Shown: in pieces, positions 30,290 to 61,114 of the stretch | Numbering within the stretch: position 1 is the first letter of the stretch | Layout of the letters: every line of letters starts with the position of its first letter | NCBI RefSeq assembly: GCF_040081985.1 | Contig: NZ_JBEBMH010000002.1 | Span: 1-64,000 of the forward strand | Source: Mesorhizobium yinganensis | GTDB taxonomy: Bacteria > Pseudomonadota > Alphaproteobacteria > Rhizobiales > Rhizobiaceae | DNA length: 64,000 nucleotides | Direction of reading: 5' to 3' | Translations under genes and position numbers: made by a program | Notes under the pieces: generated by a model | Seen by the model: only the letters and a program-made list of their open reading frames with translations | What the model was told of the DNA's origin: nothing | The model's database searches: none

Positions 30290-30363
30290 CGCGGCATAGC
30301 TCAGAGGAAGAGCACCGGACCAAAAGTCCGGGGGTCGGGGGTTCGAGTCCCTTTGCTGCACCA
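30290..30363 (+). tRNA. tRNA gene, isotype unresolved (anticodon loop reads CCAAAAG; C1:A72 mismatch)
   Basis: Canonical D arm (TAGCTCAGAGGAAGAGCA) and T arm (GGGGGTTCGAGTCCCTT). Acceptor pairs cgcggca/tgctgca (6 of 7). Anticodon stem ccgga/tccgg is perfect, but the 7-nt loop CCAAAAG lacks U33 and gives no standard anticodon. The CCA is not cleanly encoded. Confidence 0.45.
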
Positions 30364-30433
30364 CGGATAGCTCAGACGGTAGAGCATCAGACTTGTAATC
30401 TGATTGTCGAAGGTTCGAATCCTTCTCCTTGTT
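30361..30433 (+). tRNA. tRNA-Thr (anticodon UGU) candidate
   Basis: D arm TAGCTCAGACGGTAGAGCA. Anticodon stem tcaga/tctga with loop CTTGTAA (U33, anticodon TGT, A37). T arm gaagg-TTCGAAT-ccttc. The acceptor stem, as read, has two mismatches and its first three nucleotides coincide with the CCA-like end of the upstream tRNA. Confidence 0.55.
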
Positions 30434-37189: not shown

Positions 37190-37385
37190 GCGGTTACTGT
37201 TTGCGCCTCTTCGCACCCCCCTCTGTCCTGCCGGACATCTCCCCCTCAAGGGGGGAGATTGCTCCGACCGCTTGGCTTTCGCCAATCGCCGCCGTCGCAG
37301 GAAGAGCGGCGGAAGCGACACAGCCAATCTCCCCCCTTGAGGGGGAGATGTCCGGCAGGACAGAGGGGGGTGCGACGAGACGTAA
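37190..37385. repeat. RIME/REP-like palindromic intergenic element
   Basis: The arms gcaccccctctgtcctgccggacatctccccctcaaggggggagattg and caatctccccccttgagggggagatgtccggcaggacagaggggggtgc are near-perfect reverse complements (about 48 bp) flanking a 70-bp spacer. Confidence 0.6.
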
Positions 37386-37427
37386 ACTTTCAAGCGGACC
37401 GATCCCCGCCCAAAGGACCATCCAATA

Positions 37428-40664: not shown

Positions 40665-40850
40665 AACACCCCTCATCCGACCTCGCTTTGCTCGGCCACC
40701 TTCTCCCACAAGGGGAGAAGGGAGAGTTTCGCGCCGACCTTGCAGCAAATCGTCGACATCGGAGATTTGCTGAAACGAAGCGGCGGCGCTCTCCCTTCTC
40801 CCCTTGTGGGAGAAGGTGGCCGAGCAAAGCGAGGTCGGATGAGGGGTGTT
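40665..40850. repeat. Large perfect palindromic element (about 58-bp arms, about 68-bp spacer) between the B and C subunit genes
   Basis: Left arm cacccctcatccgacctcgctttgctcggccaccttctcccacaaggggagaagggagag. Right arm ctctcccttctccccttgtgggagaaggtggccgagcaaagcgaggtcggatgaggggtg, an exact reverse complement. Confidence 0.7.
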
Positions 40851-41657: not shown

Positions 41658-41689
41658 GCGGTGGCCTTGATAAGGCTAGAGCCGAAATT

Positions 41690-41840
41690 ACTCCCATCCC
41701 TAGCCCCTCCCCACAACGGGTAGGGGGACTTTGCGGCCGCAATGCCGCGCGAAACCACCGACGATTGATGCCTGGCCGAAGTGCAAGCCGATCCCCCTTC
41801 CCCTTGTGGGGAGGAGTTAGGGGTGGGGGTAGCTGTCTTC
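41690..41840. repeat. REP/RIME-like inverted repeat between the A and B subunit genes
   Basis: cccctccccacaacgggtagggggac (about 41702-41730) and gatcccccttccccttgtggggaggagttaggggtggggg (about 41790-41832) carry complementary ccccacaa/ttgtgggg cores. Confidence 0.4.
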
Positions 41841-49004: not shown

Positions 49005-49009
49005 CGACG

Positions 49010-49170
49010 AGGTCCCCCTCCCCCTTGAGGGGAGGGTCGGCGCGAAGCGCCGGGGTGGGGTCATTGCGGCAGCGCGGGACGCAAAGAATGAACGTCGAAT
49101 ATGGCCGCAGCGACCCCTCCCGGCTCGCTGCGCTCGCCACCCTCCCCTCAAGGGGGAGGGAAACGTTGGC
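49010..49170. repeat. RIME-like palindromic mosaic element (intergenic copy)
   Basis: ggtccccctcccccttgaggggagggtcggcg ... gccggggtggggtcattgcggcagcg ... ccaccctcccctcaagggggaggg: terminal 20-bp inverted repeats around a core. Confidence 0.6.
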
Positions 49171-49176
49171 GCTCCC

Positions 49177-50191: not shown

Positions 50192-51064
50192 ATGACCGAA
50201 CTCTCCACCACCCCAGCGCATGACGGCTTTTCCGCCTTCCTCGCCCGCGCCGTAGCCAGCCGATCCTTCGTCATTGGCTTCGTCATCACCGCACTGGTCG
50301 CATTGGTGGCGCTGGTCTCCTTCTTCTGGACGCCTTACGACGTGACCAAACTGGTCGTCGCCGACCGCATGTTGCCGCCGTCGGCGACGCATCTTTTCGG
50401 CACCGACCAGTTCGGCCGCGACGTGCTGTCGATGATCATGGTCGGCTCGCGCAACTCCATCGCCGTGGCGCTGGTCGCGGTCGGCATCGGCATGGGCATC
50501 GGCGTGCCGCTCGGCTGCCTCGCGGCGGCGCGCGGCGGCTGGCTGGACGAGGTCGTCATGCGTTTCAACGACCTCGTCTTCGCCTTCCCTGCATTGCTGT
50601 CGGCGGTGATGATCACCGCAGTATTCGGGCCGGGCGCGGTCAACGCCATCATCGCCATCGGCATTTTCAACATCCCGGTGTTTGCGCGCGTGGCGCGGGC
50701 CGGTGCGCTCGCCATCTGGCCGCGCGAATTCATCCTGGCGGCGCGCGCCGCAGGCAAGGGCAAGGCGCGCATCACGGTCGAGCACATATTGCCCAACATT
50801 GCGACGATGCTGCTGGTACAGGGTACGATCCAGTTCGCGCTAGGTATTCTGGCCGAGGCGGGCCTTTCCTATGTCGGGCTGGGCGCGCAGCCGCCGATGC
50901 CGAGTTGGGGCCGAATGCTGTTCGATGCGCAGACGCGCATGATGGTGATGCCGTCGCTGGCGCTGTTTCCTGGCCTTGCCATCATCGTCACCGTGCTCGG
51001 CCTCAACCTGCTCGGCGACGGCGTCAGCGACGCGCTCGATCCGAAACTGAGGCAGAGGCGATGA
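50192..51064 (+). CDS. ABC transporter permease (DppC/GsiD-like)
   Basis: 290 aa with a BPD_transp_1 pattern (ILAARAAGKGKARITVEHILPN). Confidence 0.85.
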   Translation: MTELSTTPAHDGFSAFLARAVASRSFVIGFVITALVALVALVSFFWTPYDVTKLVVADRMLPPSATHLFGTDQFGRDVLSMIMVGSRNSIAVALVAVGIGMGIGVPLGCLAAARGGWLDEVVMRFNDLVFAFPALLSAVMITAVFGPGAVNAIIAIGIFNIPVFARVARAGALAIWPREFILAARAAGKGKARITVEHILPNIATMLLVQGTIQFALGILAEAGLSYVGLGAQPPMPSWGRMLFDAQTRMMVMPSLALFPGLAIIVTVLGLNLLGDGVSDALDPKLRQRR

Positions 51065-52809
51065 GCCTGCTTGCCATCGAGAACCTGTCGCTGTCGATCG
51101 GCGACACGGAAATTCTGAAGGACGTCGATCTCGCGATCGAGCCCGGCGAGGTTTTGGGACTGGTCGGCGAATCCGGCTCCGGCAAGTCGATGTCGGCGCT
51201 CGCAATCATGCAACTGCTGCCGGAAGGCGCGCGGGCAATAGGCAGCATAAAACTCAACGGTGTCGACATCCTTGGTGCCGGCGAAGATGCGATGTGCCGG
51301 TTGCGCGGCAACGACATCGGCATGGTGTTCCAGGAGCCGATGACGGCGCTGAACCCGGTGAAGACCATCGGCGAGCAGGTGGCGGAGGGTATCCGCTGGC
51401 ATGCCGGTGTCGGCCGTGCCGAAGCCGAGGGGCGGGCGAGAATAATGCTCGACCGCGTCGGCCTGCCAGCGGAGAAATTTCCGCTGTCGCGTTATCCGCA
51501 CCAGCTTTCGGGCGGCCAGCGCCAGCGCGTCGTCATCGCCATCGCCTGCGCGCTAAAGCCGAAATTGCTGATCGCCGACGAGCCGACGACGGCGCTGGAT
51601 GTCGTGCTGCAGGCGCAGATTCTCGAGCTGCTGCGCGAACTGGTCGCCGAGAACCGCATGGGCCTGCTGCTGATCTCTCACGACCTCGCCGTGGTGACGG
51701 AAATGTCCGACCGGATCGCCATCATGCGCGGCGGCGAGATTCTGGAGACCGGCGAGACGGCGCGCACACTCGCCGCCCAGCAGCATCCTTATACACGGCA
51801 ACTCGCCCTGGCCTCGATGCATGTGCCGGAGGGGCGTTCACCATCCCCCCTGGGGGGAGGGTCGGCGATCCGGCTGAGCGAAGCGAAGCTGGCGAGCCGG
51901 GGTGGGGTCACCGAAGGTTGGCGCACTGCCGCAGCAACCCCCTCTGACCCTTCAGGCCATCTCTCCCTCAAGGGGGGAGACGGCGCCGCACCCCTCCTCG
52001 AAGTCACTTCCCTCACCCGCGACTACCCTGCCGACCGCCATTCCCTCTTCGCCAAGCCAACGATGTTCCGCGCCGTCGACGATGTATCGTTCTGCCTCGC
52101 GCCGGGCCGTTCAGTAGCGCTGGTCGGCCGCTCCGGCTGTGGAAAGTCGACGCTGGCGCGGCTGGTGCTGGCGTTGGACAAAGTGACGTCGGGCACGATC
52201 CGCTTCATGGGCGAGGACATCACCAGCCGAAGCGAGGCGGATCTGAGGACGGCGCGGCGCAATATGCAAGTGGTGTTCCAGGACCCTTACGGCTCGTTCA
52301 ACCCACGCCACCGGGTAGAGCGGCTGGTCGCAGAGCCGCTGTCGCTGCTTGAACCCGCTCCCGACCCGCTGAAGCGACGCGAGTTGGTGGCGCATGCGCT
52401 GCATCAGGTCGGGCTTAAGCCACACGACATGCAGAAATATCCGCATGAATTCTCCGGCGGTCAGCGTCAGCGCCTGTCGATCGCCCGTGCCATCATCACG
52501 CGGCCGAAACTGGTGGTTGCGGACGAGGCTGTTTCGGCGCTCGACGTGTCGATCCGCGCCCAGATCCTCGACCTTTTCGCAGACCTCAACCGCAAGCTCG
52601 GCATCGCCTACCTGTTCATCACGCACGACCTGACGGTCGCCCGCGCCATCACCGACGACGTGCTGGTCATGCACGAGGGCAGGATCGTCGAGCGCGGCGC
52701 GACCGCCCACGTGCTGGACAATCCGCAATCGGACGCGGCCAGGGCACTGGTCGATGCGGCGCCCGACCTGAGACGCGCGATCTCGCGCAAACTGCGCGAG
52801 CAGGGGTGA
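51061..52809 (+). CDS. Fused double-ATPase ABC protein (GsiA-like; two complete nucleotide-binding domains)
   Basis: Start overlaps the permease stop (ATGA). NBD1 has GESGSGKS ... LSGGQRQRV ... [15 protein letters not shown]2 has GRSGCGKS ... FSGGQRQRL ... [13 protein letters not shown] roughly 50-aa Gly/Ser/Pro-rich linker separates them. Confidence 0.85.
51845..51990 (+). repeat. RIME-like palindromic element embedded in frame in the inter-domain linker of the fused ATPase
   Basis: ccatcccccctggggggagggtcggcg ... gccggggtggggtcaccgaaggttggcgcactgccgcagca ... tctctccctcaaggggggagacgg shares long blocks with the intergenic copy at 49010-49170. It encodes [51 protein letters not shown]. Confidence 0.55.
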
Positions 52810-60608: not shown

Positions 60609-60660
60609 CTAGGGCAGTAGGGCAGTAGGGCAGTAGGGCAGTAGGGCAGTAGGGCAGTAG
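60609..60660 (+). repeat. Tandem octamer array (TAGGGCAG)x6, left boundary of cassette
   Basis: ctagggcagtagggcagtagggcagtagggcagtagggcagtagggcagtagg starts 3 nt after the acdH stop. It places TAG stop codons in all three plus-strand frames. Confidence 0.85.
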
Positions 60661-60667
60661 GAAAAGG

Positions 60668-61036
60668 ATGCCCGAGAAGATCGATTCTTACAGGGACCTG
60701 GTCGTCTGGCAACAGGCGATAGATTTGGCTGTGGCCGTGTACGAAACGACAAGCAACTGGCCGAGGGACGAAGTCTACGGGTTAACCAGGCAAGCTCGTA
60801 GGGCGGCCACGTCCGTTCCCGCCAACATCGCCGAAGGATATGGCAGGGAAAATGTTGGCTCCTATCAGCAGTTCCTGAGGATCGCGCAAGGATCGTTAAA
60901 AGAGCTGGAGACGCATCTATTGATCGCACAACGCATAGGCATCGCATCGCGCGATGGAATCGGCCCCTTGCTAACCAGCAGTGAGAGCGTCGGAAAATTG
61001 CTGCGCCTTCTGATCCGAAGGCTCTCGAACGACTAA
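60668..61036 (+). CDS. Four-helix-bundle protein (23S rRNA intervening-sequence protein family)
   Basis: RBS aaaagg then ATG. MPEKIDSYRDLVVWQQAIDLAVAVYETTSNWPRDEVYGLTRQARRAATSVPANIAEGYGRENVGSYQQFLRIAQGSLKELETHLLIAQRIG carries the family hallmark blocks (L.VWQ.A, R.A..SI.ANIAEG, A.GS..E...L). GC is lower than in the flanks. Confidence 0.7.
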   Translation: MPEKIDSYRDLVVWQQAIDLAVAVYETTSNWPRDEVYGLTRQARRAATSVPANIAEGYGRENVGSYQQFLRIAQGSLKELETHLLIAQRIGIASRDGIGPLLTSSESVGKLLRLLIRRLSND

Positions 61037-61087
61037 CCCTACTGCCCTACTGCCCTACTGCCCTACTGCCCTACTGCCCTACTGCCC
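61037..61087 (+). repeat. Tandem octamer array (CCCTACTG)x6, exact reverse complement of the left array; right boundary of cassette
   Basis: ccctactgccctactgccctactgccctactgccctactgccctactgccc begins immediately after the TAA stop. It puts stops in all three minus-strand frames. Confidence 0.85.
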
Positions 61088-61114
61088 TTTCCACCGCCAT
61101 TCAGGAGCACGCAC

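Follow-up and report, generated by a model that had tools for sequence, protein, structure and literature searches.

A rhizobial REP/RIME-like palindromic repeat in the linker-coding region of a fused double ABC ATPase gene of Mesorhizobium yinganensis

The stretch of Mesorhizobium yinganensis DNA that is analysed here (contig NZ_JBEBMH010000002.1, positions 1 to 64,000; hereafter, "the window", i.e. the whole 64-kb stretch) raises the question of how a palindromic repeat has come to be read as part of a protein. The repeat segment is located between the two nucleotide-binding domains (NBDs) of a fused double ATP-binding cassette (ABC) ATPase, and the original prediction, made from the sequence of the window, had offered two answers: either a repeat was inserted in frame into a pre-existing linker, or the repeat mediated the fusion of separate DppD-like and DppF-like genes. 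Our comparison of the segment with the other palindromic elements of the window, with related genomes and with the same site in orthologous genes argues for the first answer: with high probability, the linker-coding region of a Dpp/Opp-type ABC ATPase that was already fused contains a GC-rich, non-coding palindromic repeat of rhizobial REP (repetitive extragenic palindromic)/RIME type.

The repeat segment and its families

The ATPase, a protein of 582 amino acids, is encoded at 51061-52809 (+) by the final gene of an operon, downstream of the genes of a family-5 solute-binding protein (SBP; SBP_bac_5) and of two permeases (BPD_transp_1), as assigned with Pfam; its open reading frame (ORF) spans 50905-52809, and the ATG at 51061, which overlaps the stop codon of the upstream permease gene, is the likely true start. 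The protein contains two ABC_tran domains (Pfam, 7.5e-63), and the Walker A, signature and Walker B motifs are all intact in both halves; by its domains, its motifs and the make-up of the operon, the gene is a fused double-NBD ABC ATPase of the peptide/nickel type. In NCBIfam, the protein is placed near GsiA, YejF and Dpp, yet under the equivalog cut-offs (GsiA, 501 vs 1077; YejF, 494 vs 834), and its best solved relatives are the fused DppD (8wd9) and Rv1281c (8j5q) of Mycobacterium tuberculosis. Both of these, as well as GsiA and YejF of Escherichia coli, likewise have two ABC_tran domains per chain, and their genes follow one for an SBP_bac_5 protein and two for permeases; unlike all four, the ATPase of the window has a linker that holds a palindromic repeat. 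The parts of the gene are listed below, where L-numbers denote loci of relatives (P-numbers, used further on, denote proteins):

51061-51828 (+): NBD1, residues 1-256 (Pfam, motif reading)
51829-51990 (+): inter-domain linker, residues 257-310, 54 amino acids (orthologue alignment, pLDDT of the AF2 model)
51838-51909 (+): left repeat unit, family A (collinear with 49019-49063 of the intergenic family-A element; matched at the same site in L081 and L084)
51841-51861 (+): left terminal hairpin, ccatcccccctggggggaggg (direct reading, motif scans)
51910-51985 (+): inverted family-B unit on the right (matched in L083; agreement of 22 of 23 nt with 37236-37258 and with 37350-37328)
51960-51980 (+): right terminal hairpin, tctctccctcaaggggggaga (direct reading, motif scan)
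51991-52806 (+): NBD2, residues 311-582 (Pfam, motif reading)

The repeat segment (51838-51985, 148 nt) has no stop codon in the frame of the ATPase and is translated as residues ~260-308; the frame around it (51820-52005) reads CAT GTG CCG ... CCC CTC CTC GAA GTC. The segment encodes the spacer between NBD1 and NBD2, a stretch that follows ...ASMHVP and is 63% G/S/P/A/T. A blastn comparison of the segment with the rest of the window has returned four matches of at least 30 bits (37236-37258, 37350-37328, 49019-49042 and 49049-49063), against a mean of 0.04 matches and a maximum of 1 in 200 dinucleotide shuffles, and the window contains 11 occurrences of the core hairpin motif, where 3.4 are expected. 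The blocks that had been described as common to this segment and to 49010-49170 are present, and the collinear matches exceed those of the shuffles.

The ends of the segment had also been read as one inverted-repeat pair; this part of the description has to be revised, as the two ends belong to two families (A on the left, B on the right) and are not the arms of a single palindrome. The in-ORF copy is an A/B hybrid: its left unit shares 93% identity over 70 nt with this linker site in L081 and 92% over 64 nt with that in L084; for its right unit, identity to the linker site in L083 amounts to 87% over 70 nt. The fold of the whole segment is weak (-78.4 kcal/mol, z -2.2, with 3 of 200 shuffles being as stable). 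The hybrid no longer forms a long hairpin, and the window copy is therefore most likely an immobile fossil. Neither a promoter-like nor a terminator-like site has been found in the in-ORF element.

Including the element inside the ATPase gene, five palindromic elements occur in the window; the other four are called intergenic by their position relative to the list of ORFs, which are not confirmed as genes:

37199-37387 (no strand): family-B doublet in the opposite arrangement, hairpin ends inward; 63-nt arms, 95% complementary
40665-40850 (no strand): family-C doublet; 92-nt arms, 88% complementary
41689-41831 (no strand): more degenerate palindromic doublet; 40-nt arms, 85% complementary
49005-49176 (+): family-A doublet, the whole SBP-permease spacer; 35-nt arms, 86% complementary

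An intact element consists of two inverted units of ~50-75 nt each, with a CCCC-loop-GGGG hairpin as the end of the unit, and the terminal hairpins of intact doublets are inverted copies of each other. At least three families are distinguished by sequence: family A (CCCTCCCCCTTGAGGGGAGGGTCGGCG...GCCGGGGTGGGGTCA), family B (TCTCCCCCCTTGAGGGGGAGATG...CAGAGGGGGGT) and family C (CCTTCTCCC...GGGGAGAAGG); compared by eye, the element at 40665-40850 and the ATPase linker of L085 belong to the same family C. As RNA, the A doublet copy at 49015-49162 folds with -113.2 kcal/mol (z -10.5).

The repeat identity of the segment, which was to be checked with BLASTN, is also borne out in other genomes: in addition to its four matches in the window, the 148-nt segment has 269 matches across 89 records of plasmids or chromids (Sinorhizobium, Shinella, Rhizobium, Neorhizobium and relatives); the B half accounts for nearly all of them, and for every one of those listed. 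A typical B doublet is located between convergent ORFs on pSymB of S. meliloti, and 19 further records have matches to the intergenic A element. Among the matches listed, none is located within an annotated gene, and one from Shinella merely overlaps the 5' end of a gene. In 537 kb of related DNA, which contain 33 hairpin clusters, the ATPase linker is the sole cluster site within a real gene; the other "embedded" clusters are antisense or intergenic ORF artefacts, as checked against the gene calls. No Rfam family matches the elements, either at the gathering threshold or at E <= 1.

The Shinella match, on plasmid NZ_OZ000535.1 (L172, 3001-3054), is a family-B unit that lies partly within a split ABC ATPase gene, at its annotated 5' end; on account of this overlap, it was rejected as a linker insertion, for which its annotation as "ABC transporter ATP-binding protein" had made it a candidate. 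The overlap could be an N-terminal extension into the repeat or the product of a mis-set start codon.

Translations of the repeats are also encountered in protein databases. The translation of 37199-37387 matches 446 clusters of "hypothetical proteins" of 56-101 amino acids (Mesorhizobium, Agrobacterium, Neorhizobium), which we read as spurious ORFs called in further repeat copies; the names found among the proteins that match it (P0122-P0241) include propionyl-CoA carboxylase alpha polypeptide, precorrin-3B synthase, CobN and FtsY, and look like annotation artefacts. For annotation, the consequence is that hundreds of spurious small "proteins", some of them misleadingly named, arise from such translations, which also inflate the linker diversity of protein families. 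Searches with the peptide of the window linker have returned no match (word-index search) and one spurious match (exhaustive HMMER search); relatives are beyond the reach of a hybrid peptide this short and this diverged.

The linker site in orthologues and close relatives

Our comparison of the linker has been conducted on the best 120 homologues of the ATPase, which are 69-88% identical to it and all full length. The commonest linker, found in 66 of the 120, has 12 amino acids in a protein of 540 (e.g. ARAKVHATGQGK) and is unrelated to the repeat; with its 54 amino acids, the linker of the window is ~42 amino acids longer. Linkers of 13-14 amino acids, among them solo-hairpin alleles, occur in nine orthologues and linkers of 15-30 amino acids in six, while 39 have more than 30 amino acids, with recognisable hairpin-type peptides in 34. 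Half elements are seen in P0018 and P0022, and composites of 69-96 amino acids in P0001, P0063 and P0077. An alignment with fused orthologues had been suggested as a check; in these 66, the linker is shorter and bears no relation to the repeat.

Among the matches listed in a genome scan, the orthologues of Aminobacter, Nitratireductor and Aquamicrobium are fused, with short linkers that contain no palindromic doublet; the genes of Rhodobacteraceae, at 52-57% identity, have a length of ~1.55-1.6 kb, i.e. that of a fused gene without the insert. A metagenome scan with the linker and its flanks has added six distant orthologues, in a result that is dominated by the generic Walker-A pattern.

The loci of the closest relatives were fetched individually; the synteny around the ATPase gene is conserved in them, and the reading frame is open at the linker in all of their alleles. 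The contents of the ATPase linker are the following:

L081 and L084: A/A doublet
L083 and L086: B/B doublet
L085: C/C doublet
L001 (M. loti LU): B-like doublet
L171: A-like doublet
L088: unclassified insert of 47 amino acids
L087: 21 amino acids, without clear repeat

The in-ORF doublets fold with -99.5 kcal/mol (L083 B/B, z -7.4), -110.4 kcal/mol (L084 A/A, z -11.4) and -102.8 kcal/mol (L085 C/C, z -10.3). By inspection, the left hairpin starts 12-15 nt past the Pro codon of HVP in all loci but L085 (24 nt), and the right hairpin ends 5-10 nt ahead of the PLL codons. In L170 (5781-5805), the linker of 14 amino acids is a lone 24-nt hairpin, CCCTCCCCCCTTGTGGGGGAGAGG; in L171 (5781-5935), the gene of which is 86.6% identical to that of L170, a full doublet of ~150 nt is located at the same place. 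The solo hairpin is either a deletion remnant between two terminal hairpins or an insertion seed.

In a tree of the operon (4.5 kb, linker excluded), the window is grouped as (L084,(window,(L085,L081))) with a bootstrap of 97-100%, and L083 and L086 are located outside this group; taken together with the contents of the linkers, the tree implies at least three changes of occupant among six close relatives. We consider it quite possible, if somewhat short of probable, that the linker acts as an intragenic landing pad, fixed within a few nucleotides, where families A, B, C and D and composites replace one another, anchored on the shared CCCC-loop-GGGG hairpin, with selection keeping the frame open. 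If so, the A/B hybrid of the window would be a caught intermediate of replacement, and the empty, solo-hairpin, half-element, doublet, hetero-doublet and composite states of the site would form a natural series in which REP-like exchange at orthologous sites can be studied. A common reading frame across the families was at one point taken as support for replacement in place and has been dropped: families A and B are framed differently relative to the hairpin loop, and the "SPL" peptide that they have in common arises from different lengths of the C run.

A second turnover site of the same operon is the SBP-permease spacer, which in the window holds a single A doublet (49005-49176). The orthologous spacers contain the same A doublet in L084 and L086, another A type in L081 and a B doublet in L083 and L085; there is no element in L087, L088 and L001, and there is a solo hairpin in L006 from Nitratireductor.

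Origin and retention of the insert

An AF2 model of the ATPase (60-sequence alignment, predicted template-modelling score [pTM] 0.76) is confident in both domains, and residues 260-308 alone have a predicted local distance difference test (pLDDT) value below 50; the mean pLDDT of 10-residue blocks is 74-94 over residues 1-250, 70 in the last block before the linker and 74-95 in NBD2. The insert is thus predicted to sit where the fold tolerates it, in a disordered linker. The intergenic copies of the window are stop-free in 3-4 of the six frames, and all the intergenic copies tested in 2-4 of the six; in shuffled sequence of the same composition, a frame is open with a probability of ~0.35. Since so many frames of the repeats are stop-free, an in-frame, stop-free landing is not rare.

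We propose that a repeat, normally made of two inverted, hairpin-ended units, landed in the DNA that encodes the unstructured linker between NBD1 and NBD2. It would have been tolerated there on account of the disorder of the linker and of the stop-free reading of the repeats in about half to two thirds of the six frames, with selection probably retaining in-frame, stop-free versions only; the outcome would be a full-length ATPase, the Gly/Ser/Pro/Ala-rich spacer of which is ~42 amino acids longer. The site appears to have been re-occupied or overwritten repeatedly in the lineage, by A/A, B/B and C/C doublets and by composites, perhaps through nested insertion and deletion or through conversion, and in-frame deletions may have trimmed some occupants to half elements or to a lone hairpin.

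Several points weigh against this account. By inspection, there is no direct repeat of the kind left by target-site duplication around 49005-49176, around 37199-37387 or around the linker copies, and there is no GTAG beside the terminal hairpins of the window elements inspected or of the linkers and spacers of the relatives; no transposase for the elements has been found within the 64-kb window, where no search was aimed at RAYT. In view of these three negative results, the mobility of the elements, along with any enzyme that may move them, is assumed by analogy. For the source genome, the copy number is an extrapolation from the five elements of the 64-kb window. The event order drawn from the tree rests on eight sequences and may be blurred by recombination between strains, and the sampling favours intact ORFs, as frameshifted alleles would be missed among full-length proteins. 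In addition, the A units of the window and of L081 have only five differences, too few for a selection test on the peptide, which we presume to be neutral.

The competing explanations differ in how far they can accommodate the comparisons above. A coincidental resemblance, in which the linker would be an ordinary GC-rich, low-complexity coding sequence, might be suspected from the G/S/P/A/T-rich peptide, from a fold that is just marginally better than that of shuffles (z -2.2) and from the lack of a real match in the linker peptide searches; it is nevertheless hardly credible, given that the collinear nucleotide matches to intergenic elements are far above those of shuffles, that relatives hold near-perfect palindromes of 120-150 nt at the same codons (z -7 to -11) and that hundreds of intergenic copies elsewhere match the unit. 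Only slightly less remote is the fusion of the two genes by the repeat, i.e. that a repeat between separate DppD-like and DppF-like genes joined them after the loss of a stop codon: the same families do occupy intra-operon spacers, such as 49005-49176, which makes such an event plausible in principle, but in Mesorhizobium the predominant form is a fused gene with a short linker and no repeat (66 of the 120), a form that also occurs in the outgroups. The fused architecture extends well beyond the insertion, and filled linkers are nested among the fused genes; the fusion is therefore taken to be much older than the insertion of the repeat, which would have entered an existing linker. Of the two answers originally offered, it is accordingly the in-frame insertion that agrees with the unrelated 12-amino-acid linkers, with the short, repeat-free outgroups and with the dispersed nature of the repeat family.

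Compatible with this insertion into an existing linker, yet improbable in our judgement, is that the insert has been kept because it is useful, as a longer flexible tether or as an mRNA structure that tunes translation or decay. Long linkers do persist, always in frame, over lineages that are 25-30% apart in protein sequence, the SBP-permease spacer is filled by the same families, and REP hairpins in operons of E. coli stabilise the upstream mRNA; on the other hand, the sequence at the site is interchangeable across unrelated families and lengths (23-96 amino acids), the linker has been trimmed to 14 amino acids repeatedly, most orthologues do not have the insert, the strong hairpin is lost in the window copy, and neither a promoter nor a terminator signal has turned up in the element. 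That the repeat was "co-opted as coding sequence" holds in the literal sense of its being translated. As regards the A/B hybrid, it may have arisen by stacking followed by deletion, by conversion from other genomic copies or by a very short exchange between strains. The last of these, a short recombination patch with a B/B strain in place of nested insertion and deletion or conversion within the lineage, is suggested by the B half, which resembles the L083 linker copy over 70 nt (87%) and the B-type element of the window over just 23 nt, and by the position of the window in a clade of the operon tree, the other members of which are A/A or C/C. We regard it as unlikely, though a good deal less so than the alternatives already weighed: no wider exchange is seen, the NBD2 of the window being 86-87% identical to those of L081, L084 and L085 vs 78% to that of L083; by inspection, the sequence right after the element resembles L081, not L083; and the composites of 69-96 amino acids show that stacking and deletion do happen. 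Allelic recombination as the origin of the hybrid was rejected, as a sliding-window comparison has revealed no L083-like tract beyond the element.

Relation to known repeats and other features of the window

Repeats that are located in frame within genes have been documented as Rickettsia RPEs and as ERIC/RU, BRE, BOX and RUP elements (PMC3184786, PMC10969869). Like these, the element of the window is a dispersed palindromic repeat of ~100-150 nt, in frame in a functional gene, at a site that is compatible with the fold, and orthologues without it exist. It differs from the RPEs in that it occurs in other bacteria and belongs to unrelated sequence families, in that one linker alone is occupied in 537 kb, compared with the RPEs in 44 genes of R. 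conorii (PMC10969869), and in that several families alternate at one ATPase site, with the window copy being a hybrid. The element may thus be said to work like the RPE-type protein-coding palindromes, an analogy that claims no membership by sequence.

The doublets of REP sequences (REPINs) and the BIMEs of gamma-proteobacteria are mobilised by RAYT/TnpA-REP (PMC3116915, PMC3337134, PMC6006769); genes of Y1 transposases are reported as absent or few in Alphaproteobacteria, Rhizobiales included (PMC6006769). As in REPINs and BIMEs, the intact doublets described here have inverted units that form a long hairpin, and the copies are mainly intergenic, often within operons, and occur as mosaics of unit types; the long hairpin of REPINs is seen in the intergenic A copy (49015-49162; z -10.5) and in the in-ORF copies of relatives (z -7 to -11), and the in-ORF copy of the window is a hetero-doublet with z -2.2. 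In contrast to REPINs, the hairpins are without an adjoining conserved GTAG, the units are longer, and the ATPase copy is intragenic and translated instead of extragenic. Of the features of miniature inverted-repeat transposable elements, terminal inverted repeats are present in the intact doublets, and a flanking target-site duplication is not seen by inspection.

RIME1, RIME2 and the Sm-repeats of Sinorhizobium meliloti (Osteras et al. 1995, cited in PMC2573895) are, like the elements of the window, mosaic palindromic repeats of rhizobia of roughly 100 nt, and the RIMEs are described as intergenic. S. meliloti pSymB carries family-B doublets of the same sequence type, and "RIME-like" is a reasonable description of the segment.

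The type of event is hence already known; less usual are that the window copy is a hybrid and that multiple families turn over at one intragenic site, which is fixed within a few nucleotides. At this locus, non-coding repeat DNA of a free-living soil bacterium has been taken into a functional protein, cleanly and in a way that can be dated, and the case shows how much arbitrary extra sequence the inter-domain linker of an ABC ATPase can absorb; the allelic series at the linker can be used for studying the gain, swap and loss of palindromic repeats.

Three further features of the window deserve mention. The region 60610-61092 has the look of a small cassette with inverted octamer arrays as its borders: a gene of 122 amino acids (60668-61036; Pfam 23S_rRNA_IVP, 7.7e-34) stands between an array of seven tandem TAGGGCAG octamers and the exact reverse complement of this array, in arms of 51 nt that are 100% complementary and 376 nt apart. 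At 30291-30433 (+), two tRNA genes are neighbours with one base between them. At 2314-2430, a 39-nt unit occurs in three tandem copies, the second and third being 87% and 69% identical to the first, and may be a coding repeat.

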